A program made the position numbers and the translations under genes. The notes beneath the pieces are model-generated. The model was not told the DNA's origin. It worked only from the letters and a program-made list of their open reading frames with translations, and did no database searches. A stretch of 64,000 nt of DNA from a virus: IMG/VR virus record IMGVR_UViG_3300029389_000414; one strand, written 5' to 3'. Shown here one piece after another: positions 1 to 44,539 of the stretch. How positions within the stretch are numbered: the first letter of the stretch is position 1; every line of letters begins with the position of its first letter.

Positions 1-1671
1 TTATTTACCGGCCATCTGTTTTTCCTGCTGTTCAATCATCTTTTTTACCATAGTATCACAACGCATCTTATTGTTTTTAGGTGTAATGTATTCTTTCTGT
101 ATGTCGTATCCAATGTTTAATTTAAAAGTTAAAGTCATGCTTCTTTCGCTAGTTTTTTTTGCATAAATCTTATCAAATAGAATATCAATTGTTTTTTTTG
201 TAATTGTTGAATCGGTTATTGTGCATATATCATTGAGATGTTTTTTTACTTTACACTCAATTTCGTTAATATGATAATCTGATGTTTCGACCTTTATTTT
301 TTTTAATTCTGCTTCGAGTTCTTTTTTTTGATCTCTTAAAATCCTATCGCGTGAGTAATATTCTTCATTATCTAAATATCCATTTAAGTTGTGTTCAAGT
401 AAACGGTCTTGTTTGGTATGAATTTTTTTGATCTCATTTTCTAATCGAATGATTTCATTTTTTGAATCTGTATTAGAAATTAATGATTTAAAATCACTAA
501 AATATTGATCAACAACCGAATTGAGGTTTCCTAAATCTTCATGGATAATCTCTTTTATTATATGAATTAATTCTTCTTCTTTGATTGGAAGTGAATCACA
601 TTTTTCTTTTCCTTGAACTTTTTTTACCGAACACCCCCAATAAGGAGCGCGATTTTTATTAGTCAATAGCCAATAAGATGCTCCATCATTTTCGCATATG
701 ATTTTTCCAGTAAATAAATTTATTTTTTGAGTGGATCTGTTTTTGCTTTTTACATCGGCTGAACGTTTTTTAAGAATTTCGTTTGCTTTATTCCATAATT
801 CTTCAGAAACAATAGCTGGAACAGTAGTTCCGTCATCTTTATAACAAAGCCAATTTTCTTTTGGTATGAAGCGTTGCTTTTTTGTGAGCATATCTTCTAC
901 AACAACTTTTCCACCACAATAATAGCCTTTATATTTAGGATTTTGAATAATGTTTTGGATTGTACGTGAACTAATAGTTTTTCCATATCGATTTGTGAAG
1001 CCTTTTTCATACAATTCTTTCCCAATTTTGTATGTCCCGACTTCACCTGATGCGTAACGTGAAAAAATGTATCTAACCATTTCAGCAGTTGATTCATCTA
1101 TAGATAAGGAACAGTTTTCTTTTATATAACCATACATGTTATTTGCACCCATAACATGTCCTCTTCTGATGGATTGAGATTGTCCAAATTTTACTCGTTC
1201 AGAAATTTTTCTGGATTCTTCTTGAGCCATTCCAGACATAAATGTCAACATGAATTCAGAATCTTCTTCTAAAGTATTGATATTATTGTTAATGAACCAT
1301 ACTGCTACACCATACTCTAGTAATCGCCTAGACCACTGTATACTATCTAATGTATTTCTAGCAAATCTAGGAACTTCTTTTGTAATAATTAAATCAAATT
1401 TTCCACGTTTGGCATCTTCCATCATTGCGGAAAATCCTTTACGCTTTTGAACTGATAATCCTGTGGTTGCTTCATCCACATACCTTCCAGCATAAGTCCA
1501 ATTAGGAACACTTCGAATTAATTCTTCACTATAATAATTTTGATTGACAATAGAAGACTTTTGCTCTTCCTTTTCTGTACTTACGCGATCATAGTGTACA
1601 ACACGTAGATGTAAGTCTTGGATTTTCTTTAATCCTAATTTTAACTCTCGTCTTGCAGCATAAATATCCAT
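1..1671 (-). CDS. large serine recombinase (resolvase/invertase N-terminal domain, recombinase and zinc-ribbon domains, coiled-coil tail)
   Basis: Complete 556-aa ORF. The N-terminus carries the serine recombinase motif VHYDRVSTEKEEQ. Length and C-terminal coiled coil fit the large serine recombinase family. Confidence 0.85.
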   Translation of the reverse strand: MDIYAARRELKLGLKKIQDLHLRVVHYDRVSTEKEEQKSSIVNQNYYSEELIRSVPNWTYAGRYVDEATTGLSVQKRKGFSAMMEDAKRGKFDLIITKEVPRFARNTLDSIQWSRRLLEYGVAVWFINNNINTLEEDSEFMLTFMSGMAQEESRKISERVKFGQSQSIRRGHVMGANNMYGYIKENCSLSIDESTAEMVRYIFSRYASGEVGTYKIGKELYEKGFTNRYGKTISSRTIQNIIQNPKYKGYYCGGKVVVEDMLTKKQRFIPKENWLCYKDDGTTVPAIVSEELWNKANEILKKRSADVKSKNRSTQKINLFTGKIICENDGASYWLLTNKNRAPYWGCSVKKVQGKEKCDSLPIKEEELIHIIKEIIHEDLGNLNSVVDQYFSDFKSLISNTDSKNEIIRLENEIKKIHTKQDRLLEHNLNGYLDNEEYYSRDRILRDQKKELEAELKKIKVETSDYHINEIECKVKKHLNDICTITDSTITKKTIDILFDKIYAKKTSERSMTLTFKLNIGYDIQKEYITPKNNKMRCDTMVKKMIEQQEKQMAGK

Positions 1672-1716
1672 CCATATATTCCTCCTGTTCAGGAGACTAT
1701 ATATGTGTCACACACA

Positions 1717-1872
1717 TTATAGTCCAGATGCTTGTGCTAATTCAACTTTATTTATATATTTGCTACTAATTTCCATTTCCATTTTGTCGTATTCTTCTTT
1801 TGAAATATATCCATAATTTAATAAATTTTGATTTAATAATTGCATTAAGATGCCTTTTTTAATATCTTCCAT
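1717..1872 (-). CDS. small hypothetical helical protein (51 aa) upstream of the recombinase, possible directionality factor
   Basis: ATG preceded by aaaaaggagg RBS; 52 codons in frame to TAA. Below the 60-aa ORF-track cutoff. Confidence 0.4.
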   Translation of the reverse strand: MEDIKKGILMQLLNQNLLNYGYISKEEYDKMEMEISSKYINKVELAQASGL

Positions 1873-2206
1873 TTTATATACCTCCTTTTTCCATAATATT
1901 TATGGCGTTAAATTGATAAAAATATTCATCAAGAAGTGTAAGATGCCTCTTATTAGTAGTATGTAAAAATACGCAAAAAAAAGAAGCGCAACAATTACGC
2001 TTCTTAAATGTTAATTTTCATCACAAATTTTTGTTAAGCATTTTCATATAATAAAGAAAGATTTTATTGGCCCTTAATGCGTCAGAGATATGCTCTTTAT
2101 ATGGACTGTCTTCATTTAATTGTTTCCACAGCTTATACAAGATCAAATTTTTTTGTTAACGATAATTTCGATTTTTTACCGCAAAAACCAGACGCTCCTC
2201 GCAATA

Positions 2207-2494
2207 TTACAGCTCCCCGAATTGATCTTTGTATTCTTCTAATTGCTCCAAGGTCTCTACCAACTTCACTTCCAAATTATCCTTTTCCGCTTCCAATTCG
2301 TCATATTTTTCATCCAATAAATTTAAGTCCGAACGAACAGCCGACAGGGAATCTTCATATTCTTCTTCCATAGTATTGAGTTGAGAACGAAGGAAAGAGG
2401 ACATCCCCTCGTATACTTCATATGGCATTAATTCCTGAAAATCTTCTAATTTTGTAATGTAATGAACAACACCATCTTTTGTAATGCTTTGCAT
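2207..2494 (-). CDS. hypothetical acidic coiled-coil protein
   Basis: 95-aa ORF, same orientation as neighbours, glutamate-rich heptad pattern. Confidence 0.45.
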   Translation of the reverse strand: MQSITKDGVVHYITKLEDFQELMPYEVYEGMSSFLRSQLNTMEEEYEDSLSAVRSDLNLLDEKYDELEAEKDNLEVKLVETLEQLEEYKDQFGEL

Positions 2495-2514
2495 GGATAT
2501 TGGCTCCTTTCTTT

Positions 2515-3096
2515 CTAGCTGGCAGGCAGATCAACAATTGTTAAATAATGGATCAAAATTTTATTTGCACGGATCACATCGGAAAGGAATTCCAGGTATG
2601 ATGGAGTCTCTTCAGTTGTTTGTCTGTATAGTTTCTGTAGTTTTTTTGTTTCTTCTTTCAGCTGTTCAATCTGTTCTGTGTAATTATTCATTTCTTCTAA
2701 GAAGATCATGGATTCTAGAATTCTGTTTATATATTCCTTTATATCATATTGTTCGTTAATGTTATCAGTTCTTTTTGCAGCACGTTTTTTTAACCGGAAT
2801 AAATTACGATAACTCTTGGATAAATCTACTTCTTTTATGACTGAAGTCTGTATTTTCTTTCCGCAATAAGGACAATAATATATTTGCTCTTCGGTATCTT
2901 TTTCCCGAATTAAAATTCCTGGTATAGATGATTCTTGGCTGTTGATACTAGATTCCATTGATGGGATTCCGAGATAAAATATCCCGTTTTCAGTATTCTT
3001 AAGTTCTTTCCACATTTTATGGCAGCAGTATTTGATTGGTTGATATTTGTAAGTTTCCTGGTTATCCAGTATAATTTTAGTGTACTTAATTTGCAT
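2515..3096 (-). CDS. hypothetical protein with CPYC zinc-ribbon and coiled coil
   Basis: 193-aa ORF with a YYCPYCGKK motif. Confidence 0.5.
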   Translation of the reverse strand: MQIKYTKIILDNQETYKYQPIKYCCHKMWKELKNTENGIFYLGIPSMESSINSQESSIPGILIREKDTEEQIYYCPYCGKKIQTSVIKEVDLSKSYRNLFRLKKRAAKRTDNINEQYDIKEYINRILESMIFLEEMNNYTEQIEQLKEETKKLQKLYRQTTEETPSYLEFLSDVIRANKILIHYLTIVDLPAS

Positions 3097-3099
3097 AGT

Positions 3100-3591
3100 T
3101 CAAATCCTCGATATCGCTAAGTTCCCAATACTGATTGATCTTTCGATCCAATTCATGTACCTGGTCTTGTAATTGCGCTTCTTTTTTCTTACTGTCAGTT
3201 TTTTGGCACTGCTTCCAGAGTTCTGCTCTTTCTTTTGACAATTCCTGATATTTTCCTGATAAATCTTGTTCTTCTGATACATGAATTTGTATTTCTTCCC
3301 CGCAATGAGGACAGAACCTGATACCTGTGCAATCGCATCCACACGGATATTAATGAAATCCTGTGTCGGGATGTAATCTTCTGTCTCGATGTCAATGTCG
3401 ATCTGACCGACCTCCATCCAGTCTACACGTTCAAAGAACGGAATCTTAAATCCAGCCTTTCCCAAAAGTACTCTCGGTTTCTTGCGAAGTCCTGTAATAA
3501 CTGCTGCACGGTTCGGCGGAGCTTTCACATAAGCTGCTGACAAAACGAGAATAATGGCAACAGCTATCGGGATAATGATAAATATACCCAT
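3100..3591 (-). pseudogene. truncated SPFH/flotillin-like N-terminal fragment
   Basis: The first ~95 aa (TM helix then YVKAPPNRAAVITGLRKKPRVL...FFERVDWMEVGQIDIDIETED) match the start of flotillin/SPFH proteins. The rest of the ORF is low-complexity out-of-frame sequence, and an overlapping alternate-frame ORF is present. Confidence 0.45.
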
Positions 3592-3844
3592 CTCTCTTTA
3601 CCTCTCTTTCTTTAATCGTCTTATTTATAGTATGGAAAATCGCACATTTCTCTGTCTTGGCAAAAGGTAACTGCCAACACCTTTATTTACCTCCATCAGT
3701 GAAAAAAAGAAGACCCAGGACAAAAGTCCCGGGCCTTGCCTATATCATTCCTCTTCTTTTCTGATAAATTCCCCTTTTTCTGTAAAAGAAGAATCTACAT
3801 GTACACCGACTTTGATCAAAAAATCAAGCGGTGTAATGTGTTCG

Positions 3845-4381
3845 TTATATGTTTTTTCCATTTTGTGATCCTCCAAGTCTGCCATTTTTGAATATTTCCA
3901 GTCCTTCCTGATATAATTCCTCATTCAGCCAGTATACATATAGTGCAATGTTGCAGTCTTTGAATAAAGATTCCAGTATTGCCCTGTATACGAAATGCCA
4001 GTCGCCGCCTGCTAATCCACAGCCGATAAATCCAGGGATGGCAAGGGAATTACCTGTTGCTATTGCAAGATTTTTCGCGGTTTCCAGGCCTTTGAATAAA
4101 GCAGGGTAATCTGTGTCACACAGAGTTCCTGTCGGAATGTTCTCACCAAAAATATTAATAATGGTACGTCCATCCGACAGATCCATGACCTGTATCTGTC
4201 CCAGACAGCCCTCTCCTTTTTCCAGGCATGCCTGCCGATAGGAATCAAACTGTTTTGGAGTTAACAGGGGCTTGATCTGTTTAGCAAGTCCCGCACCCAT
4301 GACTCCTTTGCAATTCACTTGATGACAGATATATTTTGCATCTTCCTGTTTCAGAACATCTCCGATTTTGTGTATGATCAT
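3845..4381 (-). CDS. macro-domain-like protein (putative ADP-ribose binding/hydrolase)
   Basis: 178 aa. VNCKGVMGAGLAKQI and later GFIGCGLAGG resemble the glycine-rich ADP-ribose binding loops of macro domains. Sits 19 bp downstream of the PARP-like gene. Confidence 0.45.
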   Translation of the reverse strand: MIIHKIGDVLKQEDAKYICHQVNCKGVMGAGLAKQIKPLLTPKQFDSYRQACLEKGEGCLGQIQVMDLSDGRTIINIFGENIPTGTLCDTDYPALFKGLETAKNLAIATGNSLAIPGFIGCGLAGGDWHFVYRAILESLFKDCNIALYVYWLNEELYQEGLEIFKNGRLGGSQNGKNI

Positions 4382-4399
4382 ATGGATATCCTCCTAATT

Positions 4400-5569
4400 C
4401 TATTTTTCTAACTCGATCAAATATTGTAATGTTACCTGCCGTTCGTCATAAACAATGATTTCATCATTGACCAGACTGGTTCCTGCATGAGCAAATAATG
4501 CATCGTGAGGCTGGATGTTTCGTAAAGAACTCATATAAGGTTCCCACGTCATAACATCTTTTTGGTTTTTGTATGCCACTTTGAATACAGCCAGAAAAGC
4601 CTGATCATTTGAACCTTTCGCCCAATATGAGCCACTGATGCTGGTATAATTTATGGATTTTTTAGCCCTGGGAGCGAAGTACAAGCCATGTCCGAACATC
4701 TTTCCAGTAATCGGAGCTTTTGGATTCAGCTTCAGACCTTCACTCATAATCCCTATATAATTCATGTTCTTAGAACCATGATAAAGATAATGAATGTTTT
4801 TCCCCTGTATGTGGTTTTGTTCACAGTAATCCTTAAATTTCTTATCTGATTCCAGGTTATGCACACGAAATGCACGTTTAAATAAATGTGCAGATTCTGA
4901 AGATAAGAATTTCTTGATCTGAGCGTTTTCTTTCTCTGTGCATAGGCGGATGTCCAGTCCCAGGTCATCCAAAATGGTTTTGTCCGGAATTTTTTTGGAA
5001 GTTTTCTTCTCCTGCTGGACTTTTGTACGCATTAAATCTAAAAGATCCTGCTCCCTTTCCAGGATATGCTCCATATCTTTTCCGTTTGCAGCAGCCATCT
5101 CAGAGACTGACTTCATTTTTCTTGGAATGATCCGGAATAATGAAAAGAGCAGATCATTGAACTTTCGGACATCAATAGTCTGTCCAAGCTGAAAGATCAA
5201 TTCCTGGGCGTCTTCGAGCATCTTTTCATTAACATCCTGATAGGAAATGGTATAGGATTCATCCAGCATCCGGTTCGCATAATGCATCAGGGAATCGATC
5301 AGTTCTTTTACAGAAGGCTCCGGTATGTCCCGGTATTTGGAATTTGTAGTCTTCTCTACGAATGTGTAAGAAGTACGATCCGTATATCCTTCCTGGAGTT
5401 TCTTTTGGTAGGTTTCATTCCATAGATACATCGGACGTTTCATTTGGACCGGGGAAGCTCCTATCCGTCCCATTTCGATCCGGAAATTGTCTCCTTCAGC
5501 AACCATCCGGTAATAACGGTTATTGTTGTGTTCAGGGCTTATTTTTATTAAATAAGCAAATTCATTCAT
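4400..5569 (-). CDS. bacterial PARP-like protein: WGR domain plus PARP catalytic domain
   Basis: The N-terminus YYRMVAEGDNFRIEMGRIG is WGR-like. The C-terminus LYHGSKNMNYIGIMSEGLKL...GKMFGHGLYFAPRAKKSINYT...NDEIIVYDERQV matches the PARP1 catalytic H-G-S / Y / E signature. Start chosen at the internal ATG with a gaaggagg RBS. Confidence 0.8.
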   Translation of the reverse strand: MNEFAYLIKISPEHNNNRYYRMVAEGDNFRIEMGRIGASPVQMKRPMYLWNETYQKKLQEGYTDRTSYTFVEKTTNSKYRDIPEPSVKELIDSLMHYANRMLDESYTISYQDVNEKMLEDAQELIFQLGQTIDVRKFNDLLFSLFRIIPRKMKSVSEMAAANGKDMEHILEREQDLLDLMRTKVQQEKKTSKKIPDKTILDDLGLDIRLCTEKENAQIKKFLSSESAHLFKRAFRVHNLESDKKFKDYCEQNHIQGKNIHYLYHGSKNMNYIGIMSEGLKLNPKAPITGKMFGHGLYFAPRAKKSINYTSISGSYWAKGSNDQAFLAVFKVAYKNQKDVMTWEPYMSSLRNIQPHDALFAHAGTSLVNDEIIVYDERQVTLQYLIELEK

Positions 5570-5793
5570 GTGGTTATCCTCCTTCGTTAATTTGGAACGA
5601 TATATGATTTCCTCCATTCTTCATAAAATTCGTTCTAATAATAGAATGGGAAATAAATGCGGAAATAAAAAAGGGGACGGGCCATCCTATGCCCTGTCCC
5701 TATATACGAAATGGAGAACAACCGCAAGATTTTTCTTGCACGATATATCTTACGCTGCCCCTTGGAAAATGGCAAACTTTTGGACAGGAAAGA

Positions 5794-6120
5794 TCAGATG
5801 TCCAGATATGGCACGACGTTGTCCAGCATAGATGGGAATACGTTCTGGCAGTATTTAAAATAATTATGGTCGCTGACTTCCATGATCCGGGAGAATCGCT
5901 GCATAGCACGGATGAATCTTTTTTCGTGTGAGCGTTTTACCTGACATAAGATCAAACGGTATGGATATTTAGGGTCTGCATATTCCTGCCCGGTCCACAT
6001 TTTTACCTTTTTCTGTTGACAGATCGCATCACCTGTCCGTTCTTCATTTTCCAAGTAACAAAAGTATTTGTAACGAAATGAAAACTTTTTTAGTTTTGCA
6101 TAATTTACAGCATATCTCAT
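5794..6120 (-). CDS. hypothetical protein
   Basis: 108-aa ORF with no recognisable motif. Confidence 0.35.
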   Translation of the reverse strand: MRYAVNYAKLKKFSFRYKYFCYLENEERTGDAICQQKKVKMWTGQEYADPKYPYRLILCQVKRSHEKRFIRAMQRFSRIMEVSDHNYFKYCQNVFPSMLDNVVPYLDI

Positions 6121-6373
6121 TTTTCTTCTCCATATATTTTAGTTTCCCGGAAAACGTGAAGGAAAAAATAATAAAGGTAGTCATCATGGGATTTTTGTCT
6201 TCCGGGAAAATTGGTTGTTTGGATAGGGTTATATCTAATGACTATCTTTTATAAAAAGAAAATGTTCTTCCCTAATAGTATGGTAAATCACGCTATTTTC
6301 TTGTCCTAAAGTTTGAAGATTTCTAAAAGGTCTGCTATCATAGGGATACAAAGAAAAGAGCGAGGTGTATATT

Positions 6374-6790
6374 TTGAAGATAATCGTTTGTTTAGATGAT
6401 AACAACGGAATGACTTTTAACTGCCGGAGGCAGACGAAAGACCGTGAAGTGAGACGGGATATGCTATTCCTGGTCCGGGACCAAGAACTGTGGATGAATA
6501 CATACAGCCGGAAGCAGTTTGATCCGAACAAGATATATCCACAGATTCATGTAGATGAAAATTTTCCAGCCCATGCCCCGGAAAATGCCTATTGTTTTCT
6601 GGAAAGTTCGGATTACTTGATCAACAAATATAATGTAACAGAAGTCGTGATCTACCGGTGGAATCGCAGATACCCCGCAGATACTTATTTTGAATTCGAT
6701 TTTACCGGCTGGAAAAAAGAATCAGAAAAGCAGTTCGCCGGATTTTCTCATGAAAAGATCACAAGGGAGGTATGGAAACATGAGCAATAA
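6374..6790 (+). CDS. DHFR/RibD-C-like domain protein (tentative)
   Basis: TTG start with GAGG RBS. The MKIIVCLDDNNGMTFN opening and overall pattern resemble dihydrofolate reductase-like folds. Overlaps the next gene by 11 nt. Confidence 0.4.
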   Translation: MKIIVCLDDNNGMTFNCRRQTKDREVRRDMLFLVRDQELWMNTYSRKQFDPNKIYPQIHVDENFPAHAPENAYCFLESSDYLINKYNVTEVVIYRWNRRYPADTYFEFDFTGWKKESEKQFAGFSHEKITREVWKHEQ

Positions 6791-7712
6791 GAAGATCAGA
6801 TATTTAATTGGAAGTATCCTGCTGTCGCTGTCTTTTGTTCTTGGGGCATGTTCTCAAAGTGCCGGCAGCCAGCAGACAGAAGTGAACACTGAATTATCAG
6901 GTGAAAAAGACACAGGAAGTCCAGAGCAGTCTTCTTTCGATTTAAGCCAGGTTCCGGCGTACTCAGGTGAGCCATATGTAGTCGTAAACAATAATAACCC
7001 ATTTTTTAAGGATTCTGACCTGACAACAGAAGCATTTGAAAAATATTCTGATCTGGACAGTTTAGGAAGATGTGGAGCCGCATATGCAAATGTCTGTCAG
7101 GAAATCATGCCGACAGAAAAGCGCGGTGCGATTGGAATGGTAAAACCGACCGGCTGGCATACCGTGAAATATGACTGGGTGGATGGAAAGTACCTATATA
7201 ACCGCTGCCATTTGATCGGATATCAGCTGAGTGGAGAAAATGCCAATGAGAAGAACCTGATCACAGGGACCAGATATCTGAATGTAGATGGAATGCTTCC
7301 GTTTGAAAACCTGGTCGCCGATTATGTGCATGAGACCGATCATCATGTCCTGTACCGGGTGACGCCTGTCTTTGAAAATAGTAACTTAGTTGCAAGCGGG
7401 GTTCTGATGGAAGCTCAGTCTGTAGAAGATGATGATGTGCTGTTCTGTGTGTATTGTTACAACGTGCAGCCAAAAGTAACGATTGATTATGCGACAGGTG
7501 AGAGCCACGCATCAGAAGATACCAATATTCAGGAAACCTCTCAGTCCACTGGCGAGCAGACATATATCGTAAATGAGAATACCAAAAAATTTCATCTTCC
7601 GTCCTGTTCCAGCGTAAAAGATATGAATTCTGGAAACAAACGGGAATTTACCGGGGACAGGCAGGAGCTTTTGGATGAAGGATATTCCGCATGCAAGACC
7701 TGTCATCCATAA
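6780..7712 (+). CDS. lipoprotein DNA/RNA non-specific endonuclease (His-Me finger family)
   Basis: gggagg RBS; signal peptide with lipobox LGAC. YNRCHLIGYQLSGENANEKNLITGT matches the RGH active-site region of NucA/EndA-type nucleases. Confidence 0.65.
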   Translation: MSNKKIRYLIGSILLSLSFVLGACSQSAGSQQTEVNTELSGEKDTGSPEQSSFDLSQVPAYSGEPYVVVNNNNPFFKDSDLTTEAFEKYSDLDSLGRCGAAYANVCQEIMPTEKRGAIGMVKPTGWHTVKYDWVDGKYLYNRCHLIGYQLSGENANEKNLITGTRYLNVDGMLPFENLVADYVHETDHHVLYRVTPVFENSNLVASGVLMEAQSVEDDDVLFCVYCYNVQPKVTIDYATGESHASEDTNIQETSQSTGEQTYIVNENTKKFHLPSCSSVKDMNSGNKREFTGDRQELLDEGYSACKTCHP

Positions 7713-7802
7713 ATAACAGTACAGTCTCAAATGTTGGGACTGTATTTTTTTGTAAAAAAAGAAAACCCTGGAATTTCCAAGGTCTCTTTTTGCTGTTATG
7801 TC

Positions 7803-9023
7803 TTAGAGAATATTCTTATTCCCATTCCATTCCCCTGCATCAATCTTATCAAATGGCAGTTTCATGAGTTTTGCCACCTGTTCGCAAAGATTCAGGTAAC
7901 GAGTAGGAGTAAGATCATTTTGTACAGAATGTCTCTGGATAATGTCATTCAATGCCAGATAAACATCGATTGCAGTCCCGCCTTTCGGAAATCTCTTTCT
8001 GCAATCCTCTTCTACTGCTTCAGCGATCTGTCTTGGAAAGAAAGTATAGACTTCCCGAATCTGGTCAACACATCCTGCAACATCCGAAATATCAATATTT
8101 CCAAGCTGTTCGATCTGTTCCTCACATTCTTTCAGCACCATTCCAAGATTTTTCATGGCTTCCCCAAATTTTTCTGGAGATGCTTCTCCTTTATGCTCCA
8201 TTGCAATTCCGCCGCCAAGTGTAGTACGGACTCCATCTGCATCATAAAAAATGGATGCATAGACCCTGGATGCTCCGACATCGGAAGTAGAGAAACGGAT
8301 CCCCGCCTTCAGATTCGCGATATCAGCACCTGCATCATTGAGTTTTAACCGGAAGGTCTCTTCCATGGCCCGGTCATTTAACAGGTACTCTGCCATTAAG
8401 AATTCATGGCTGACAGAACCTTTGTCGAACTGAAAATCCGGATGGTCTTCTATAAGCTGTTCCTCCAGGCTCAGGATCAATTCATCTGCCGGAAGGATTG
8501 CATATTCTTTGGAAAGAGCCGCACTGACTTTTCCATCACGCAGTAAGATCTTACAGTTGTCGGAATACATCAGATAATCTCTGGTCAGTCGCTGTGCTTT
8601 CTCATCGATCGGAAGCACCCCCTTATTTGGCTTCACATCAAAACGGTACATTGTACCGCAATCATCGTCTGCACGTTTACAGATAGATGCAAAGGCAATC
8701 CGTCTGGTTGGATAAGGTATGATGTGGTTTTTGTATGGGAATATCAGGAAAAGGCCGGTATCCTCGATACATTCATGATTTTCTTCATTATCATAGTCAA
8801 TATCCGGGATGTCAATAGTATATCCATTTTTTCGTACTTTGATGTTATGGCAGTATTCCGGGAAAAATAATGGTTCATTTTTAATGCCGACTGCCGCCAT
8901 TTCATTGATATAGACATTTAACCATTCATCATTCTTTTTTCGAAAATCCAAGTATTTTTTTAAGTCCTCACGGTTTTCTAAATAAACTACACTGTCATCA
9001 TTTGCTAAAAATTTCTTTGTCAT
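7803..9023 (-). CDS. hypothetical 406-aa protein
   Basis: Long ORF; no motif confidently recognised. Confidence 0.5.
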   Translation of the reverse strand: MTKKFLANDDSVVYLENREDLKKYLDFRKKNDEWLNVYINEMAAVGIKNEPLFFPEYCHNIKVRKNGYTIDIPDIDYDNEENHECIEDTGLFLIFPYKNHIIPYPTRRIAFASICKRADDDCGTMYRFDVKPNKGVLPIDEKAQRLTRDYLMYSDNCKILLRDGKVSAALSKEYAILPADELILSLEEQLIEDHPDFQFDKGSVSHEFLMAEYLLNDRAMEETFRLKLNDAGADIANLKAGIRFSTSDVGASRVYASIFYDADGVRTTLGGGIAMEHKGEASPEKFGEAMKNLGMVLKECEEQIEQLGNIDISDVAGCVDQIREVYTFFPRQIAEAVEEDCRKRFPKGGTAIDVYLALNDIIQRHSVQNDLTPTRYLNLCEQVAKLMKLPFDKIDAGEWNGNKNIL

Positions 9024-9194
9024 TTGGTTATCCTCCTAATTGTTTGTTGATACGAACATAACAGTATTTTTTAATCCTCCGTTCTTCTGAAATTTTATGT
9101 TCTATAGATAGAATGATTTTTCTGTTAGAAAATAAAAAAAGAAGTCCCCGTATTGGAGACTCCTTAATTACCGTAATGTTTAGAAATATTCTTT
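9024..9194 (-). repeat. intergenic cassette copy 1 (terminator, promoter, conserved 5'UTR; inverted repeats aacataacagta / taccgtaatgtt)
   Basis: Carries the shared elements gttatcctcc, cagtatttt, ttctgaaattttatgttctatagatagaatg, aaaataaaaaaagaagtcccc...ggagactcc and ccgtaatgtt. Confidence 0.7.
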
Positions 9195-9662
9195 TTATGT
9201 TGTATCATTGATAAGTGCAAGAATTTTGTCCAGGCATGTTTTGTAAGCATCTGGGGCTGAATCCAGATGTTGTTTTGCCTGATTGACTGCATCCAGCAAT
9301 TCCACTTTTACGGCAGGACTGATCAGTCTTTCATTTTTAAGAGCTTCTTTCACAGCATACTCTTCATTCGACCATTCCTGAAAGCTGTTGTTGTTTATTT
9401 CGTATTTTCCTTCGTAATCGCCGTAGTAAGTAAAAGATCCATCAAGCTGGATATTCTCTTTCTGGCAGGATTCACATAAGGCTTGGAGATTATCTTCAAT
9501 ATCTCCATGAATATGGGATACTTCTATTTCTGCCATGCCTTTAAATTCTGTGACATCAGCGTTTTCTTCCTTTTCAATAAGTTTTTGGGATACCAAAAGT
9601 TCAAGAAATTTTGGTACACTTTCTTCTTTGATTTCAAATGAACCGTCATTCACTAAATACAT
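9195..9662 (-). CDS. hypothetical protein
   Basis: 155-aa ORF directly downstream of cassette copy 1. Confidence 0.5.
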   Translation of the reverse strand: MYLVNDGSFEIKEESVPKFLELLVSQKLIEKEENADVTEFKGMAEIEVSHIHGDIEDNLQALCESCQKENIQLDGSFTYYGDYEGKYEINNNSFQEWSNEEYAVKEALKNERLISPAVKVELLDAVNQAKQHLDSAPDAYKTCLDKILALINDTT

Positions 9663-9677
9663 AAGCTATCCTCCTTG

Positions 9678-10025
9678 TTAATCATCACAATTGTTTAATG
9701 CAGCATAAGCATTTTCCATTGCTGTTCTTAGTAATGCATTTGCATATTCTTCTTTGCATTCTTCTGCTATTTCTGGCTGCAAAAAACAATATAATTTATT
9801 TATATCGTAATCTCCAAAGACATAGTCCTCCAATATAAGCCGATATGTCGTTCTCAAGGCATGACGGATTAAAGAGCCATATGTACTGTCGTGTCTTTCT
9901 TTTGCAAGCGCTATACAAGCATATTTAAAGGCATCCGTTAATAAAGATTCTGCATATAAATCCTCGGGTTTGAATTCACTTGATAAACAATTCTTTAAAA
10001 TATTTGCTGCTTCTTTATTTGTCAT
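9678..10025 (-). CDS. hypothetical protein
   Basis: Start set at the ATG after a ggaggataac RBS. Confidence 0.5.
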   Translation of the reverse strand: MTNKEAANILKNCLSSEFKPEDLYAESLLTDAFKYACIALAKERHDSTYGSLIRHALRTTYRLILEDYVFGDYDINKLYCFLQPEIAEECKEEYANALLRTAMENAYAALNNCDD

Positions 10026-10047
10026 TGTTATCCTCCTTATAAACTGG

Positions 10048-10266
10048 TTAATCATCACTATTGCTTAATACTGCGCAAGCATTTTCAAAGAGTTCTGATA
10101 GTTCCCGAATTCCATCGTCAGTCAGAAGTGAGTGAGTCACATTCAGCTGCGTTTCATCTTCTTCATGCTCTCGGTTCAAAAATCCGACATTCACACAGGA
10201 ACATCTTTTGATCTCAGATACAGAACTGGTGTATATTTTGTTTTTCATCATTTCAGCAATTGTCAT
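10048..10266 (-). CDS. hypothetical small protein
   Basis: 72-aa ORF in the operon-like minus-strand run. Confidence 0.4.
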   Translation of the reverse strand: MTIAEMMKNKIYTSSVSEIKRCSCVNVGFLNREHEEDETQLNVTHSLLTDDGIRELSELFENACAVLSNSDD

Positions 10267-10469
10267 CTGTTTTCCTCCTCGTCTGGGTCATCCCAAAGAT
10301 ATTCATTTCTAACTTTTTCTTCAATATCTAAAACACTAAGCCATCCAAAACAACAATCACAGACACGGATCGTCTTCTGGCGTCTTTTACCATAATATTT
10401 TCCTGTAAATTTAATCTTAGTGTTTGGGACCTGTAAATCACTTGCCCCGCAAATCCAGCAGCGTATCAT
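10263..10469 (-). CDS. small zinc-ribbon protein
   Basis: 68 aa with CWICG...CDCCFGW; 4-nt overlap with the downstream gene. Confidence 0.45.
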   Translation of the reverse strand: MIRCWICGASDLQVPNTKIKFTGKYYGKRRQKTIRVCDCCFGWLSVLDIEEKVRNEYLWDDPDEEENR

Positions 10470-10480
10470 CCTGCCACCTC

Positions 10481-10762
10481 CTAATATTCAGATGGGAACA
10501 GGATAGTCGTGACAGAACGGTCCCATTCCGTAATGATCCAGATTTTTCCGTGACTGGTCTCATAAGCTGAAAGGATTCTGTCCCCGGATTCTAATGCGCG
10601 GTCATTTTCTGCCTTGTCTTCTTCACAGACGCTTCCCCAGTCGCCAGATACATGGCGATTCAGGGACTCCATGACTTTCATGTAAAATTCTTTTTCATCC
10701 ATAAATCTCGCAATATCTTGTGTCATGACAACTTTTCCAAGGTTTAATTTGTTTTTACTCAT
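10481..10762 (-). CDS. hypothetical protein, family often seen on plasmids/ICEs
   Basis: ggaggataacaaa RBS. Motifs GDWG...IWIITEWDRSVTTILFPSEY. Confidence 0.5.
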   Translation of the reverse strand: MSKNKLNLGKVVMTQDIARFMDEKEFYMKVMESLNRHVSGDWGSVCEEDKAENDRALESGDRILSAYETSHGKIWIITEWDRSVTTILFPSEY

Positions 10763-10777
10763 TTTGTTATCCTCCAA

Positions 10778-10920
10778 ATGATTATTTGAACATTACAGTA
10801 TAAAATTTAACCTCCATTTCTTCTGTAAATTATGTTCTATAGATAGAATGCATTTTCATTTGAAAAATAAAAAAGAAAGCCCCTTAAAGAGACTTTCTTA
10901 AATACTGTAATGTTACAATT
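10778..10920 (-). repeat. intergenic cassette copy 2
   Basis: Near-identical module: gaacattacagtat, cctccatttcttctgtaaattatgttctatagatagaatg, aaaataaaaaagaaagcccc ttaaagag actttc hairpin, tactgtaatgtt. Confidence 0.75.
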
Positions 10921-11817
10921 TTACTTTTTCTGCTGCAGCTTTATAAATTTGTCTGCCGGTTCAAAGATATTTTCTTTTCGATCATAGTGGTACACGTTGT
11001 TCGTCAGGCGATCAGCCATTTCGACACGGTTCGTACTTACTTCCTGGACTAAGGTATGCCTTCTTGGTGATCGGTGAGAGCCTTTGGATTCTTGTACATG
11101 ACATTCCGAAGGATCCGGAACAAATCCAAGTTCCTTTTTGTATGCCTTTACATACCGGTATCCCACATCCCAGTGTCTGGTAGCAGACGGAACAGATTTA
11201 CCATTCCTGAGCCTTATCAATACAGTTTCCCTGCCCTTGTCGCTGATATCAGGCTCGGAGCTGGATAAGTATGCAATCAGGGAAAAGATCAGATGATTAT
11301 AGGACCGCTCCCCGGTATATCCTCCTTCGAAATCTATCAGGGAATCTTCCAGGGTCTTTCCTTCGGAATAATCCATGCTTGCCTTCATAAATACGATCTG
11401 TACTGGATTCACACGTACCAGTGCGATCATTGCAAGTACCTGGTCTTTTGGATTATTATGGATGTATACCCCGACAATTTCCTTGTCATCTACCGTCATA
11501 TGACTTTCCTCAATATCCATGTAGAATGTATCGTAAGGCAAATGCAGGTCCTGCATCCGAAAATCTAATTCTGTAGCAGCATTGAGTTCGGAAGCAAGCA
11601 GGGGATGGAAACGGTATGCCTGTCTGGTCTTTAAGTATTCTGTAAAAACAGCAACACCCAGGACCACCTCGTTAAGGTCTTCTTCGGTACGATATGTATC
11701 ACGCTCGGCAAAATAAGGACGGATTTCTTCATAGCGGATCTGTTTCGGGCATTTTACATCTTCCAGCGCTTCTCTGGCCAGTCTGGATGCCATGTATTCT
11801 TCTTTGTGTTTTTTCAT
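10921..11817 (-). CDS. hypothetical protein
   Basis: Start at the ATG after ggaggataacctg (MKKHKEEY...). Confidence 0.5.
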   Translation of the reverse strand: MKKHKEEYMASRLAREALEDVKCPKQIRYEEIRPYFAERDTYRTEEDLNEVVLGVAVFTEYLKTRQAYRFHPLLASELNAATELDFRMQDLHLPYDTFYMDIEESHMTVDDKEIVGVYIHNNPKDQVLAMIALVRVNPVQIVFMKASMDYSEGKTLEDSLIDFEGGYTGERSYNHLIFSLIAYLSSSEPDISDKGRETVLIRLRNGKSVPSATRHWDVGYRYVKAYKKELGFVPDPSECHVQESKGSHRSPRRHTLVQEVSTNRVEMADRLTNNVYHYDRKENIFEPADKFIKLQQKK

Positions 11818-11847
11818 CAGGTTATCCTCCAAAAATAGATTGAACAT

Positions 11848-12004
11848 TGCAGTATTTTCTTTTTCCTCCGTTTCTTCTGCATATTATGTTCTAACTATAG
11901 TGTGATTTTTGGAATAAAAAACAAAAAAAAGAAAGCCTCAATTAAGAGACTTTCTAAAAACTGTAATGTGCAGTATTTGTTTTTTGATCCTACCCCGCAG
12001 CCAA
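11848..12004 (-). repeat. intergenic cassette copy 3
   Basis: Same module with variant inverted repeats (aacattgcagta / aactgtaatgtg) and hairpin gaaagcctc...gagactttc. Confidence 0.7.
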
Positions 12005-16173: not shown

Positions 16174-16468
16174 ATGTTATCCTCCTAATAAAATGTATTG
16201 ACATAACAGATGTATAATTGTATCCTTCTTTCATATCATTTATAATTGACATCATCGATTCCTCCAGATTATTTTTCAATCCGGATTCGTTGATCATACA
16301 GATTAAATTGTACCCTTCCTGATTTTTACATAAAGCATCGTACAGTGTATTGTAAAAACGTTCCTGCACAGCCTCCGCATTTTTCCTTCCTGAAGTTCCA
16401 TTCGAATCACTGCTGAAACGTGCAGTTTTGCATGGTCCGCTCTTGGAATAAATGGAAATGTGACTCAA
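16142..16468 (-). CDS. possible small ORF (start uncertain)
   Basis: TTG start with no RBS. An internal RBS-preceded ATG would give only a 38-aa product. Confidence 0.25.
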   Translation of the reverse strand: MSHISIYSKSGPCKTARFSSDSNGTSGRKNAEAVQERFYNTLYDALCKNQEGYNLICMINESGLKNNLEESMMSIINDMKEGYNYTSVMSIHFIRRITYEFLYNERSI

Positions 16469-16531
16469 TTTTAGCTTCTATCTGAAATTTTCTTGTGTCT
16501 CGTCCATCCATGGTTATTCTCCTTTTTTTGA

Positions 16532-16903
16532 CTAAATTTTTCTTTGCATCAGATCTATCCCCAATGCAACACTTGCGACTACTCTTTTATCCCATTCCGC
16601 AAAATCGAGAAAAGATTCTGGATCGCTGCCATCTTCTTTATAATACAGAGTCGCTTCAACGGACACTGGGCGTCCTTCATTATACATGATAACGGCGTAT
16701 TCATTATTTGAATCATAGACTGGCAGGTTTTCACGTTTACAGATTTCCACCAATTTTGCTGTGTCGTAGTAACGGTTAAATGACGGAAGTTCACAGATTA
16801 GTTGCGCTTTTACATCTGTTACTCTGCGTCCATCAATCTTAATGTCATAAAAATGATAAAACTTAAATACTACATTTATTCTATCTGGTCTTTTATGTCT
16901 CAT
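16532..16903 (-). CDS. hypothetical protein
   Basis: ggaggataact RBS. Confidence 0.5.
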   Translation of the reverse strand: MRHKRPDRINVVFKFYHFYDIKIDGRRVTDVKAQLICELPSFNRYYDTAKLVEICKRENLPVYDSNNEYAVIMYNEGRPVSVEATLYYKEDGSDPESFLDFAEWDKRVVASVALGIDLMQRKI

Positions 16904-17023
16904 AGTTATCCTCCTAATTGTATTGACATAACAGATATTTAATTGATTCCTCCTTTCTTCTGTAAATTTTTATGCCTATTAATAGAATGAAATTTCAACT
17001 GAAAAATAAAAAAGCCCCGGTAT
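16904..17023 (-). repeat. intergenic cassette copy 5 (shortened)
   Basis: gttatcctcctaattgtattgacataacagat...ttctgtaaatttttatgcctattaatagaatg...aaaataaaaaagccccgg...ccaaggctc hairpin. Confidence 0.65.
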
Positions 17024-17488
17024 TTACACCAAGGCTCTTCCCGCAGTTGCGGATAATAAGGTACACAACATAACTCCCCAAATAATCATTAATATCCCAA
17101 CGATCAGGAATGATATTTTTAGCACATTGTCAATCGTTGGACTGGCTGCATATGTACTAGGATTAAGTGTTGGAATGTATAAATAAGTCGGATCCAGTGG
17201 GTCCACATAAATCGTAATCTGCTTGCCAAGAGCTGTCCGACAATCGCCACACACATTGGAACGTTGCCGGTACAATTTTCCTGCATAATCATATTCCAGA
17301 ACCGGATATCTGTAATTGTAATAATCTCCATCCATGATACCTTGCGACATTTGGAGATCTACGATTGTAGCAGTTACCGGAGCTTTACATTTCTTCTTCC
17401 GTTTAGAAAGATCAGAAGACACAACTGCGGAAACTGCAAGGAAGATTCCGTCTGCAATAATAAATATAAGTCCATAATAATTGCTCAT
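17024..17488 (-). CDS. membrane protein (N- and C-terminal TM helices, Cys-rich middle)
   Basis: taagggg RBS before MSNYYGLIFII; hydrophobic termini. Confidence 0.5.
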   Translation of the reverse strand: MSNYYGLIFIIADGIFLAVSAVVSSDLSKRKKKCKAPVTATIVDLQMSQGIMDGDYYNYRYPVLEYDYAGKLYRQRSNVCGDCRTALGKQITIYVDPLDPTYLYIPTLNPSTYAASPTIDNVLKISFLIVGILMIIWGVMLCTLLSATAGRALV

Positions 17489-17699
17489 AATATACCCCTT
17501 AATATTCAATTGCTTTCAAAAATTCCTGTGCATCTTCCATGTTAACTTCCGGAATATCTACATAAATCAGTGTGTTATCGATTTGGCAGAGATGCATATA
17601 TTGTCCGTTTGTTGATAAAGAATACGTCTGGTAATTTTTACCAGATTTTTCTCCTTCCTTTGCAGAACTTCCCTTTGTAGATTCGAAAGACTCCTTATC

Positions 17700-17837
17700 C
17701 TCCTTGTTATATTTAGAACATACAGTATTTTGTTATCCTCCATTCTTCTGTGTAAATTGTTCTATTATTAGAATAGAGAATTTTTCATGTCATAAAAAAA
17801 GAAGCCTCTGTAGAGACCTCTTTTGTTTACTGTAATG
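17700..17837 (-). repeat. intergenic cassette copy 6 (5'UTR deletion variant)
   Basis: acatacagtattttgttatcctccattcttctgtgtaaattgttctattattagaatagag...aaaaaaagaagcctctgtagagacctctttt...tactgtaatgtt. Confidence 0.65.
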
Positions 17838-33330: not shown

Positions 33331-34758
33331 TCAATTACCGAGAGGAATCGCACGCTTTATCATCATCTGATATCCCGAATTATTTTGTAAAAGTCTGCAG
33401 AACTTTGCATTAACTGTGACCAGATCTCCAGATAAGGTCCGGATGTCGAACGATCCGCTCTTACGGATCATGACCCGTCCGGAAAAATGACCTTTATATT
33501 TGTAGTTTGTGTCTTTTGGCACGTCTGCTACGACCAAATCCCCTGTCTGGAAACCAAATGCTGTTTTGGAGCGGTCCTTCCATTTGCGGATGATCACACC
33601 ACATTGATTGATCTGGCCTCGAAGTCTTGTGCCTCTTCCGGTCGCTTTTGCATACAGATAGTATCCATGTGTCCGGTCAACGAATCCGTCTTCTGGAATT
33701 TCGCCTACACATAAAGCGTCATAGTGATGTTCTTTCGGATATTTAAGTACATTCCGATTGTATTTTGTTCTTCCGCCACTGGAACACTCCAGTTCCGGAA
33801 AACGAAGATACAAATGACGCTGCGAGTATCTTCTGCTCGAATTGACCCATGCGGCATACCGGAGTCCTTTAACTGGAGTTTTTCCTTCCATCACCTGTTG
33901 TACAAATTTCTGACGTATCTGATCCAGTTCTTTCTGTTTTCCTCTTTCTTTCGGAATCCGGTCTTGCAGAATTGTCTGCCATTCTTCCAACGTATGATTA
34001 CCTTTATCCTGATTGCAGTTATGACAGGCAAGTGATGCATTTTTGAGCCTGTCAGAACCTCCGCGGCTTCTTGGGAGCATGTGTTCCCATTCTAAAATGG
34101 GATCGTTGCTCTTTCCACCGCAATACTGGCAGGTATGTCCATATTTTTCCAATAAGTATTCTTTTACTTCATAGCCATACAGGGTTCCCTGCTGATATTC
34201 GACACCTTCAATCTCCGGGTTCTCCATGAGCTGTGTATCGAACCGCACGGATTCGATACTGCAGTTTGTAATGTTGATCCAGCGGCACAGACGTCTAATC
34301 CAGGAAATGATGTTGTCAGCGGTGCTTTTGACACTTGGCGGCAGCCAGTTTTCGTCCCGCCGGCTGTCATAGGACTGACGCTGTTCTTTTGCCGTACAAC
34401 GGTTTCCCCATTTCGGCTTGCGGTATCCAGTCTCCCGGCTTCTGCGGTTCCTTCTTGCGCTACGCCTGGTATCCAGGTTCTTTTTGATCTGTTCTCCCCG
34501 ATGCTCGATCTGCATTGCATACATGAATTCATTTGTATCATCCATTACAATTGCGATACCGGTATATTTTGCTCCGGGATCGATCTTGATCCTATAACTG
34601 GAAAGCCCGGAAAGGTTTCTTGCATCGACATCTTTTAAGATAACGATAGTCGGAAAGTAACGATACAGGACTGCACGTTTTTTCTCCAGCAGGATCCGGC
34701 ATCTCCGTTCGCTCATGAAACCAAGCGGACGTTTGTTCTTGTCTAAAGTAATAACCAT
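33331..34758 (-). CDS. iscB: IscB RNA-guided nuclease (PLMP domain, split RuvC, HNH)
   Basis: NKRPLGFMSERRCRILLEKKRAV (PLMP), KIDPGAKYTGIAIV (RuvC-I), CQYCGG...EWEHMLPRSRGGSD...CHNCNQDKG (HNH). Confidence 0.85.
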   Translation of the reverse strand: MVITLDKNKRPLGFMSERRCRILLEKKRAVLYRYFPTIVILKDVDARNLSGLSSYRIKIDPGAKYTGIAIVMDDTNEFMYAMQIEHRGEQIKKNLDTRRSARRNRRSRETGYRKPKWGNRCTAKEQRQSYDSRRDENWLPPSVKSTADNIISWIRRLCRWINITNCSIESVRFDTQLMENPEIEGVEYQQGTLYGYEVKEYLLEKYGHTCQYCGGKSNDPILEWEHMLPRSRGGSDRLKNASLACHNCNQDKGNHTLEEWQTILQDRIPKERGKQKELDQIRQKFVQQVMEGKTPVKGLRYAAWVNSSRRYSQRHLYLRFPELECSSGGRTKYNRNVLKYPKEHHYDALCVGEIPEDGFVDRTHGYYLYAKATGRGTRLRGQINQCGVIIRKWKDRSKTAFGFQTGDLVVADVPKDTNYKYKGHFSGRVMIRKSGSFDIRTLSGDLVTVNAKFCRLLQNNSGYQMMIKRAIPLGN

Positions 34759-38653: not shown

Positions 38654-39277
38654 TTATTTCTTGAGCCTTTTGCGTAATTTCTTCCGAAATTCCTTATCCT
38701 TCCCCGCTCTGACCACTACAATATCCATAACCTTATCCATGAATTTCTGATCCGGCAGATTCCCTTTTAGGAAGTTGCAGAACCGGCAGGTACACTGGAG
38801 ATTATCCATCTCATTATCTCCACCTTTAGACAATGGCTCGATGTGATCGATCGTAAACTCGTCATACGGAACAAAATCGCCACAGATCGCGCATCGGCCT
38901 TCTGCTTTGTTGTAAATCGTGATCCGGGTAGACTGAGGGAGGTTCTTTCGTTTTACAGGATTCTTGGGAAGCATTTCCTTGAGTTCTGCTGAATTACTTT
39001 CTGCATGATCCATTCCGACTGGTTGCAGTTCCTGTTGCTGTAGGACTGGCTGCTCCTTCTTATCAGGACTATTTTCTTCATGCAAAATTCCACTGTCATA
39101 GACCTGATACTCTTTCAACTTTTTCGGGGCATGATTCTTTTGACGCTCGGCTGATGCAACGGAATCGAACAGCGTCGCATTCGTGGGGTCAGTGGTTATC
39201 TTTGTGCCGCCGGTCTTTGTGACCTGCACGTATTGAATCGCATTTCCATTTTGTCTGGCCAATATATGTTTTCCCAT
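38654..39277 (-). CDS. HNH endonuclease
   Basis: CAICGDFVPYDEFTIDHIEPLSKGGDNEMDNLQCTCRFCNFLKG. Confidence 0.8.
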   Translation of the reverse strand: MGKHILARQNGNAIQYVQVTKTGGTKITTDPTNATLFDSVASAERQKNHAPKKLKEYQVYDSGILHEENSPDKKEQPVLQQQELQPVGMDHAESNSAELKEMLPKNPVKRKNLPQSTRITIYNKAEGRCAICGDFVPYDEFTIDHIEPLSKGGDNEMDNLQCTCRFCNFLKGNLPDQKFMDKVMDIVVVRAGKDKEFRKKLRKRLKK

Positions 39278-44265: not shown

Positions 44266-44539
44266 ATGTTTCCCCTCCATGTTATTGATGTGAAATTGAT
44301 ATTTGATTTATATGTTGATATTAGTATATTACAAACCGGAATGAAAAGTCAAGAAAGATTTTGATTTTTAATTGATATTTGATTTGTTTATTGATTTATA
44401 CAAGAAAAATCCCAGGTATCTGCCCGGGACTTTTCCTTGAGGAGTACTTTTCCGAAGTTTTTCCGTTACAATACCTGTTGCACAAGAAAATTCCTGAAAA
44501 AGTAAAAGTAAGAGAAACAACTGTACAGCAAAAATATCT

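Follow-up and report, generated by a model that had tools for sequence, protein, structure and literature searches.

The stretch analysed here, 64,000 nucleotides from the IMG/VR virus record IMGVR_UViG_3300029389_000414 (hereafter "the window"), carries a small cassette in which a gene for a PARP-type ADP-ribosyl transferase is followed by a gene for a macrodomain protein. Both open reading frames (ORFs) lie on the minus strand, at the coordinates given by an initial annotation of this DNA. The PARP gene (5569..4400, with its stop codon at 4402..4400) encodes 389 amino acids (aa), and its ATG is preceded at a distance of 7 nt by the ribosome-binding site GAAGGAGGA (5577..5585). Gene callers chose the same start on identical metagenomic contigs, and we rejected a 405-aa reading from an ATG at 5617, which lacks a comparable ribosome-binding site. 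The macrodomain gene (4381..3845, 178 aa) begins on the same strand 18 nt after the PARP stop codon, and that gap contains its ribosome-binding site, AGGAGG (4390..4395). A third ORF of 38 aa (MEKTYNEHITPLDFLIKVGVHVDSSFTEKGEFIRKEEE; 3861..3745) overlaps the end of the macrodomain gene by 17 nt, has its own GGAGGA site, and ends just short of a terminator-like hairpin of 12 pairs with a T-run (3710..3737), which closes the cassette. On the 5' side of the cassette, a second terminator-like hairpin with a weak 5-pair stem (5675..5687) ends the preceding unit, that of a 108-aa ORF. All of these features are on the minus strand. The PARP gene, the macrodomain gene and the 38-aa ORF thus form a three-gene cassette, for which co-transcription is predicted from these signals.

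The 389-aa protein is, by its sequence and its structural model, a minimal enzyme of the PARP1-3 type, consisting of a WGR domain, a helical domain and an ADP-ribosyl transferase (ART) domain, and its activity is predicted on that basis. The motifs that had been read as a PARP signature in the initial annotation, LYHGS, GKMFGHGLYFA and EIIVYDERQV, are all found in the translation, and the Pfam PARP model (PF00644) scores 77.2 bits against a cutoff of 26.7. A phmmer search of PDB sequences matches the catalytic fragment of PARP1 (E 1.3e-15) and pairs YLYHGS with LLWHGS (PARP1 H862), GHGLYFA with GKGIYFA (Y896), KKSINY with SKSANY (K903, S904 and Y907), and NDEIIVYD with YNEYIVYD (E988). The catalytic glutamate, which the initial annotation had singled out as the residue to check, is E370, aligned with PARP1 E988. 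In an alignment of 30 homologues (41-69% identity), H264, Y297, K304, S305, Y308 and E370 are invariant, as is the pair G34-R35. The catalytic codons lie at 4780..4778 (H264), 4681..4679 (Y297) and 4462..4460 (E370) on the minus strand, and K304, S305 and Y308 fall within KKSINY.

The AlphaFold model of this protein has a predicted local distance difference test score (pLDDT) of 91.1 and a predicted template modelling score (pTM) of 0.84. It consists of an N-terminal beta-rich domain (beta-strands within residues 4-46, plus a helix), an all-helical middle part (about residues 85-203) and the ART domain. These correspond to a WGR domain (residues ~1-62; 5384..5569) that holds G34-R35 of the [MYFW]GR motif, a helical domain (HD; residues ~85-203; 4961..5317) that would be the counterpart of the PARP regulatory domain, and the ART catalytic domain (residues ~204-389; 4403..4960). 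In Foldseek, the whole model resembles the WGR-CAT chains of PARP1 and PARP2 on DNA breaks (E 2.6e-21; TMq 0.73 to 4dqy_C), which together with the invariant G34-R35 bears out the N-terminal WGR domain suggested earlier. PF05406 is recorded for many homologues of the protein. In the HD region the phmmer alignment is partial, running over residues 153-327 of the 405-aa ORF against a PARP1 HD+ART fragment, and Pfam PARP_reg finds no match in the 389-aa protein, although residues 85-203 are helical in the model. The bacterial PARPs of clade 1 (Cytophagales, Clostridiales) also have no Pfam PARP_reg match (Garcia-Saura et al. 2018, PMC5966428). Among the PHROGs, phrog_23333, the family of annotated Cellulophaga phage PARPs, matches over the full length (1.5e-43). 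NCBIfam offered nothing meaningful for the PARP, a spurious YabG match being far under its cutoff.

The second protein belongs to the ALC1/TARG1-like class of macrodomains and, within it, probably to a subtype like BT1257 and SCO6735. A macro-like fold had been proposed for it in the initial annotation, and by the sequence profiles and the structural model this fold is secure despite a Pfam score under the cutoff. The AlphaFold model has a pLDDT of 89.6, and Foldseek aligns it at E ~1e-11 to 1e-9 with the DarG macrodomains of M. tuberculosis and T. aquaticus and with BT1257, TARG1, Poa1p and SCO6735. When a profile built from 32 family members was compared with the PDB, the matches were BT1257 (7e-20), DarG (6e-17), SCO6735 (2e-14) and TARG1 (4e-12); DarG was the top PDB match of the single sequence. 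In the model, the protein is a bare macrodomain with about 25 further residues and without an effector domain. Its loops are NCKGVMGAGLA and PGFIGCGLAGGDW, and the segments GVMGAGLA and GCGLAGGDW are invariant across the aligned family.

Whether this macrodomain would remove ADP-ribose is a separate matter. Aligned with TARG1, whose reference sequence we checked against PDB chains 2lgr and 4j5q, Lys84 corresponds to Glu80 (motif F-G-E-N) and Asp125 to Ala124 (within GCGLAGGDW), so that the catalytic dyad is not present. The Lys shared by TARG1 and DarG sits in an (I/P)TK motif that aligns with F-G-E80, and we rejected the alternative that it lies in the GVMG-K-G loop. Position 80 is Glu in the window protein and in about two-thirds of its aligned relatives, and Gln in the remainder. 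SCO6735, likewise without the Lys/Asp dyad, releases ADP-ribose bound to Glu/Asp of PARP1 E988Q as well as ADP-ribose bound to thymidine in DNA, and it needs Gln85 to do so, its Q85E and Q85A mutants being inactive (PMC9411070). Because the catalytic Lys is replaced by Glu80 and the Asp by Ala124, and because Q85E inactivates SCO6735 (PMC9411070), hydrolase activity of the window macrodomain is plausible, by alignment and analogy, but not assured.

The pairing of the two genes is not confined to the window. From genomes and from IMG/VR viral contigs we drew 80 loci each in which a relative of the PARP is encoded, 160 in all, and scanned their ORFs with hidden Markov models (HMMs) of both families. 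The macrodomain-family HMM detected a macrodomain ORF in 86 of 166 PARP loci. We defined a macrodomain gene as adjacent if it lies at most 300 bp from the PARP gene on the same strand, and restricted the count to loci flanked by 1 kb or more on each side. By this measure, an adjacent macrodomain gene is present in 59 of the 72 viral contigs and in 10 of the 68 genome loci, always upstream of the PARP gene. The genome loci with the pair are chiefly from Clostridia, joined by a Treponema and an Absconditabacterales metagenome-assembled genome; the Bacteroidota contribute none. De novo clustering of neighbouring genes likewise returned the macrodomain as the commonest neighbour family, with 85 loci, well above every other family. 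In large phages, and in some Clostridia mobile elements as well, a PARP of this kind usually has a TARG1-class macrodomain joined to it.

When the 69 adjacent macrodomains are compared with TARG1, 50 have both the Lys and the Asp and are of the true TARG1 type, 15 have the Lys alone and are DarG-like, and 4 have neither. The window pair falls within our definition of adjacency but differs from this majority, both because its macrodomain gene is downstream of the PARP gene and because the macrodomain is of the subtype without the Lys. The same arrangement, a PARP gene followed by a no-Lys macrodomain gene, is also found in loci L175-L178, with a gap of 12-14 nt; these are related to the window at 43% identity in the PARP and 58% in the macrodomain. 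A linkage that extends across three macrodomain subtypes and both gene orders argues for functional coupling of the two proteins. The initial annotation had regarded the macrodomain as the matching eraser or reader of the PARP. The matching is upheld by this recurrent adjacency on the same strand, whereas the eraser chemistry is plausible but less than certain, given the replacement of the Lys of TARG1 and DarG and of the Asp of TARG1.

The genes around the pair in viral contigs are informative as to function. Within 4 kb of the pair we found genes for Pol III alpha in 42 loci, ATP-dependent DNA ligase in 23, NAD-dependent DNA ligase in 21, NrdD in 21, an ERCC4 nuclease in 19, PAPS reductase in 17 and ThyX in 14, and the phage genes most often follow one another as ERCC4, NAD-ligase, macrodomain, PARP. 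Cellulophaga phage phi4:1 has one small gene, gp030, between its annotated PARP gene and a DNA ligase gene. The association of phage PARPs with DNA ligase echoes the PARP1-XRCC1-LIG3 pathway.

Relatives of the PARP occur, in our genome scan, chiefly in Clostridia and in Cytophagales/Saprospiraceae, and an exhaustive profile search of 1.84 billion representatives recovered 856 clusters with a threshold of E<=1e-30, a number that rises to 2,586 with E<=1e-10. The PARP had been called rare in bacteria; this is true in relative terms, but with 856 clusters the protein is no isolated case, and the family was already described (PMC5966428, PMC4245714, PMC9503650), bacterial and phage PARPs having been catalogued since 2011-2018. 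Bacterial WGR-PARPs numbered 28 sequences in 2014 and 72 in 2018 (PMC4245714, PMC5966428), and phage PARPs have been published as well (PMC7824862, PMC9503650). By tblastn, annotated PARPs are found in phages of Cellulophaga, Klebsiella, Xanthomonas and Stenotrophomonas and in megaplasmids. Those published as "PARTs" (for example Cellulophaga phi4:1 gp031 and Xanthomonas XacN1) share 23-32% identity with the window PARP over at least 98% of its length (tblastn). They come from phages of Bacteroidota and Proteobacteria and have no adjacent macrodomain, phi4:1 having instead a small protein with a TT(S/L)(K/E)EVK motif, and unlike them the window PARP gene is in an integrated element.

Among characterised enzymes, the nearest comparison is with the bacterial WGR-PARPs of Herpetosiphon aurantiacus (HaPARP) and C. 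difficile CD160 (CdPARP, of "clade 1.2 Clostridiales"; PMC5966428), which have the same order of WGR domain, helical region and catalytic domain and the same H-Y-E residues. Both of these enzymes make poly(ADP-ribose) in vitro, and the Herpetosiphon enzyme is DNA-dependent (PMC5966428, PMC8120803). Like the window PARP, the bacterial WGR-PARPs have no PARP_reg match and a sporadic distribution marked by horizontal transfer. HaPARP and CdPARP, however, are discussed together with a PARG encoded elsewhere in the genome, whereas the partner in the window is an adjacent macrodomain of the ALC1/TARG1 class. The window PARP also differs from these two in being encoded on an integrated mobile element. 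Human PARP1, PARP2 and PARP3 share with it, as judged from the model, the WGR-HD-ART core, and the equivalents of H862, Y896, K903, S904, Y907 and E988 are kept in the window PARP, but identity is about 20%, and the window protein is without zinc fingers or a BRCT domain. From Y308 to E370 it has about 20 residues fewer than PARP1, and Tyr986 of PARP1 corresponds to Asn368.

For the macrodomain, the TARG1 dyad of Lys and Asp is kept in most of the macrodomains at related loci, while the window protein has Glu80 and Ala124 in place of Lys84 and Asp125. SCO6735 of Streptomyces coelicolor and BT1257 of Bacteroides thetaiotaomicron resemble it in having the loop GCGLAGG[DKT]W and in having lost the dyad. 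Glu80 takes the place of Gln85 of SCO6735, which is moreover chromosomal, induced by DNA damage and without an adjoining PARP gene. DarTG likewise places a transferase gene beside a macrodomain of the same structural class, and the initial annotation had described the window pair as resembling DarTG in logic but not in family. For the writer this is correct, DarT being a DUF4433 protein and the window writer a PF00644 PARP. The macrodomain, in contrast, does fall in DarG's ALC1/TARG1-like class, and DarG is its best match in PADLOC and NCBIfam (with the N-terminal half). It is nevertheless without the C-terminal domain of DarG and without the Lys, and, unlike in DarTG, the linkage of its family to a writer is not obligatory.

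Taking these observations together, we lean, with slightly better than even confidence, towards the view that the cassette is a reversible ADP-ribosylation module that serves the DNA replication, repair or entry of the element that carries it, and not a poison with its antidote. The view starts from what is directly seen, namely the domain architecture, the catalytic residues, the co-transcription signals and the recurrent linkage of PARP and macrodomain. By the paradigm of PARP1-3, HaPARP and CdPARP (PMC5966428, PMC8120803), the WGR domain would bind a nucleic-acid end or break, and this binding would relieve autoinhibition by the helical domain and free the ART domain. The H-Y-E ART domain would then move ADP-ribose, as single units or as a polymer, from NAD+ onto itself, onto partner proteins or onto DNA termini. 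The co-transcribed macrodomain would bind the ADP-ribose and, most likely, remove the modification and reset the system. The module would be a variant of the macrodomain-PARP pair found widely in large phages, where its usual neighbours are genes for a ligase, a polymerase and a nuclease, and it is from these phage neighbours that we infer a role in the element's own DNA metabolism.

Several observations weigh against this view. Both diagnostic Pfam models score under their cutoffs, Macro with 19.5 bits against 22 for the 178-aa protein and WGR with 17.6 against 22 for the 389-aa protein. Glu80 occupies the catalytic Lys position, at which the equivalent Q85E and Q85A forms of SCO6735 are inactive (PMC9411070); the macrodomain might therefore only read ADP-ribose, or it might work by a different chemistry. 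In a single-linkage clustering, the macrodomain-linked PARPs form a few deep lineages, and many of the 69 pairs share ancestry. The closest relatives of the window PARP (L001-L008, 55-69% identity) have no macrodomain gene within 20 kb, and the macrodomain subfamily occurs without a PARP in L179 and in chromosomal homologues of Bacillus, on which ground we rejected the idea that this subfamily is exclusive to PARPs. Finally, the neighbours of the cassette in the window are a non-specific endonuclease, ORFs without assignment and a truncated flotillin, and not replication genes.

We weighed three other explanations. The initial annotation had seen a possible toxin-antidote or defence pair. Spelled out, the PARP, as the toxin, would sense invading DNA ends and deplete NAD+ or ADP-ribosylate DNA or proteins, causing abortive infection, and the macrodomain would be the antidote that undoes its basal activity, as in DarTG. 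The tight coupling of the two genes would fit such a pair, as would the place of the cassette near the integrase end of a mobile element, which is a typical cargo position, and operons of a transferase and a hydrolase are usually toxin-antitoxin pairs (review PMC8120803). The macrodomain's best match in a defence library is indeed DarG (PADLOC, 61 bits), but the match covers only profile positions 1-146 of 329, leaving out the DarT-binding C-terminal domain; the catalytic Lys is missing too, and the NCBIfam antitoxin_DarG score of 52.8 bits is far under the cutoff of 250. The PARP matches no PADLOC model at all. In 58 of 68 genome loci, among them all those of Bacteroidota and those of the closest relatives, the PARP also stands without an adjacent macrodomain, which would be unexpected of an obligate poison. 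Where phages do carry the pair, it is embedded in replication and repair genes, and within the present element family the PARP paralogues keep a conserved position, unlike variable defence cargo. The toxin-antidote proposal thus found no specific support, and we consider it improbable.

The pair could instead act against the defences of the host. Here the macrodomain would strip ADP-ribose put on the element's DNA by the host, for instance by DarT, or degrade signals derived from ADP-ribose, while the PARP would modify host proteins, as do Alt and Mod of T4. Macrodomains of the SCO6735 type reverse the thymidine ADP-ribosylation of DarT and rescue E. coli from it (PMC9411070), and phage macrodomains have been proposed to serve counter-defence and phage ARTs of the PARP family to modify the host (PMC9503650, PMC7824862). 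An AcrVA2-like Pfam entry (PF26125) recorded for a nearby gene (window 10921-11847 on the minus strand; 3753-4649 of L169) would also point this way, but hmmscan with a local Pfam did not reproduce it. An anti-defence role leaves unexplained why the macrodomain is consistently joined to a PARP in particular, and why the nucleic-acid-sensing WGR domain and the putatively autoinhibitory helical domain are retained; Glu80, moreover, stands where SCO6735 needs Gln (PMC9411070). We give this explanation a similarly small chance of being right. A third possibility concerns the macrodomain alone, which might be a non-catalytic reader of ADP-ribose that recruits or regulates at PARP-modified sites, as ALC1 does, and not an eraser. 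This would account for the replacement of both dyad residues by Glu80 and Ala124 and would agree with the inactivity of SCO6735 Q85E (PMC9411070) and with the existence of binding-only members of the ALC1 class (PMC6397177). It seems very improbable to us, since Glu or Gln is conserved at position 80 throughout the family, as expected of a functional site, the PARP partners elsewhere are overwhelmingly of the TARG1 type with the full Lys/Asp dyad of erasers, and a bare macrodomain offers no effector domain.

A reversible module for the element's DNA metabolism, which we prefer, can be given a more specific and bolder form. The WGR-PARP and the TARG1-class macrodomain might together be a signalling system for DNA ends or nicks in phages and mobile elements, a counterpart from prokaryotic viruses and possibly the source of PARP1-3/TARG1 break signalling in eukaryotes, although we think it rather unlikely that this is the correct account. 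It would involve reversible ADP-ribosylation of the element's DNA termini or of its ligase and replication proteins, by which nick sealing would be coordinated or the ends protected from host nucleases. Depending on the lineage, the PARP would have a different partner, the macrodomain in phages and elements of Clostridia and a protein of about 100 aa with a TTLEVK motif in Bacteroidota and their phages.

This small protein was encountered 3' of the PARP gene in 35 loci, mostly from Bacteroidota (L036-L087; for example 5589-5900 in L053). It has no Pfam family and carries the motif TTTLEVK..LR..GY.A.Q..S..M..L...E.W.F..NG.FR.Y; judged by its sequence, it looks like a lineage-specific alternative partner of the PARP. 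A related motif is found in gp030 of phi4:1 (L180 4166-4630), which lies between PARP and DNA ligase. We rejected gp030 as a hidden macrodomain, as the HMM gave no match.

The PARP and the macrodomain are thus each of a known kind, and it is their pairing in an operon that we did not find described. A list of operons for reversible ADP-ribosylation names DraT/DraG, DarT/DarG, SirTM-macrodomain and Tre1/Tri1, the same review calls bacterial macrodomains of the TARG1 type scarce (PMC8120803), and its Table 1 lists the target and function of bacterial and phage PARPs as unknown. The literature that we were able to search holds no specific description of a PARP-macrodomain operon or of an anti-phage WGR-PARP, and an earlier description is possible. 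The linkage yields a testable hypothesis, that of reversible, break-triggered ADP-ribosylation for the DNA metabolism of the element, and the module could make the long-open question of the role of prokaryotic PARPs directly testable. The pair offers a small two-protein system for the activation and reversal of a PARP outside eukaryotes, and in the window's version Glu naturally occupies the position that is catalytic in the SCO6735/TARG1 class. Siblings of the element with or without the macrodomain and with or without a second PARP are useful natural controls, to which a conserved micro-ORF is added.

This micro-ORF is the 38-aa ORF at the end of the cassette, which by sequence comparison is probably a real micro-protein. 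It is called as a gene on all identical contigs. A 37-aa homologue with 60% identity (9186-9299 in L001) directly follows the PARP gene in L001-L003, which have no macrodomain gene, and the differences between the two are chiefly at third codon positions. Because the micro-ORF there comes directly after the PARP gene, the macrodomain gene must have been inserted or lost exactly between the two.

The element itself can be followed beyond the window. Positions 1-12000 are 100% identical to L169, a metagenome contig of 114 kb from the JGI, and the index of the assembly collection has an identical PARP protein in 61 blocks. The serine recombinase gene (window 1..1671) is followed in L169 by genes of housekeeping type, for an RsmD-like methyltransferase, a CoaD-like nucleotidyltransferase and M20 and M23 peptidases. 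The element is thus integrated in a bacterial chromosome, and about 2.7 kb separate the cassette from its serine-recombinase end. The siblings L168 and L170-L174 carry the same PARP gene, macrodomain gene and 38-aa ORF, followed by a full-length flotillin gene and, some 5 kb further on, by the gene of a second WGR-PARP paralogue (478 aa), in which the H-Y-E residues are preserved. Scans for PARG families in the neighbouring genes and in the called genes within 10 kb found none in any variant of the element. PADLOC gave no DarT match among the eight neighbouring proteins, in which it recognised only DarG (the macrodomain) and a weak LmuB.

The second PARP paralogue, of 476-508 aa, also occurs in L170-L173, L001-L007 and L027 (in L168, at 16322-17758). 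It has the H-Y-E residues intact, is longer at the N-terminus by about 88 aa, and is encoded 0.2-5 kb downstream of the first PARP gene; the window variant does not have it. In the window, the Band_7/flotillin gene (3100-3591, minus strand) is cut to 163 aa, against 461-487 aa in the siblings. Homology between the window and its siblings stops near 3320, inside this gene; past that point come two ORFs, of 193 and 95 aa, and the serine recombinase gene, from which we conclude that this end of the element was rearranged or replaced. Upstream of the PARP gene are the 108-aa ORF and, on the opposite strand, a non-specific endonuclease gene with a small overlapping upstream ORF. The nuclease (Endonuclea_NS_2, 340 aa) and this 141-aa ORF (together at 6365-7712, plus strand) adjoin the PARP gene in all siblings and in L001 and L004, and may be a nuclease with its inhibitor.

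The element could be a phage or a conjugative element. Among about 50 ORFs scanned with PHROG and Pfam, none was recognised as a gene for a capsid, a terminase, a relaxase or type IV secretion, and megablast found no plasmid match for window positions 1-25000. The remaining genes of the window encode a sortase, a pilin, a thioester/TQ adhesin, two RRXRR-HNH proteins, TnpB, RNase H, PP2C, NERD and HD proteins and a fragment resembling RNA polymerase beta'. The fragment is a 417-aa ORF (43027-44280, minus strand) whose resemblance to RNA polymerase beta' is confined to the N-terminal part (Rpb1 domain 1). TIGR02386 gives it 70 bits, far under the cutoff, and tblastn against phages returned two weak matches only. 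Around it lie genes for the two RRXRR-HNH proteins (33331-34758 and 45824-47125), TnpB (36035-37249) and an HNH endonuclease (38654-39277), and by its sequence the ORF may be a split or invaded polymerase gene as in large phages. A surface-adhesion block (50866-63959, minus strand) encodes a 2177-aa adhesin with thioester, TQ-ester and SpaA domains, an AIM24-family protein, a sortase, an LPXTG pilin and a further LPXTG protein with a TQ domain, and would be unusual cargo if the element is a prophage.

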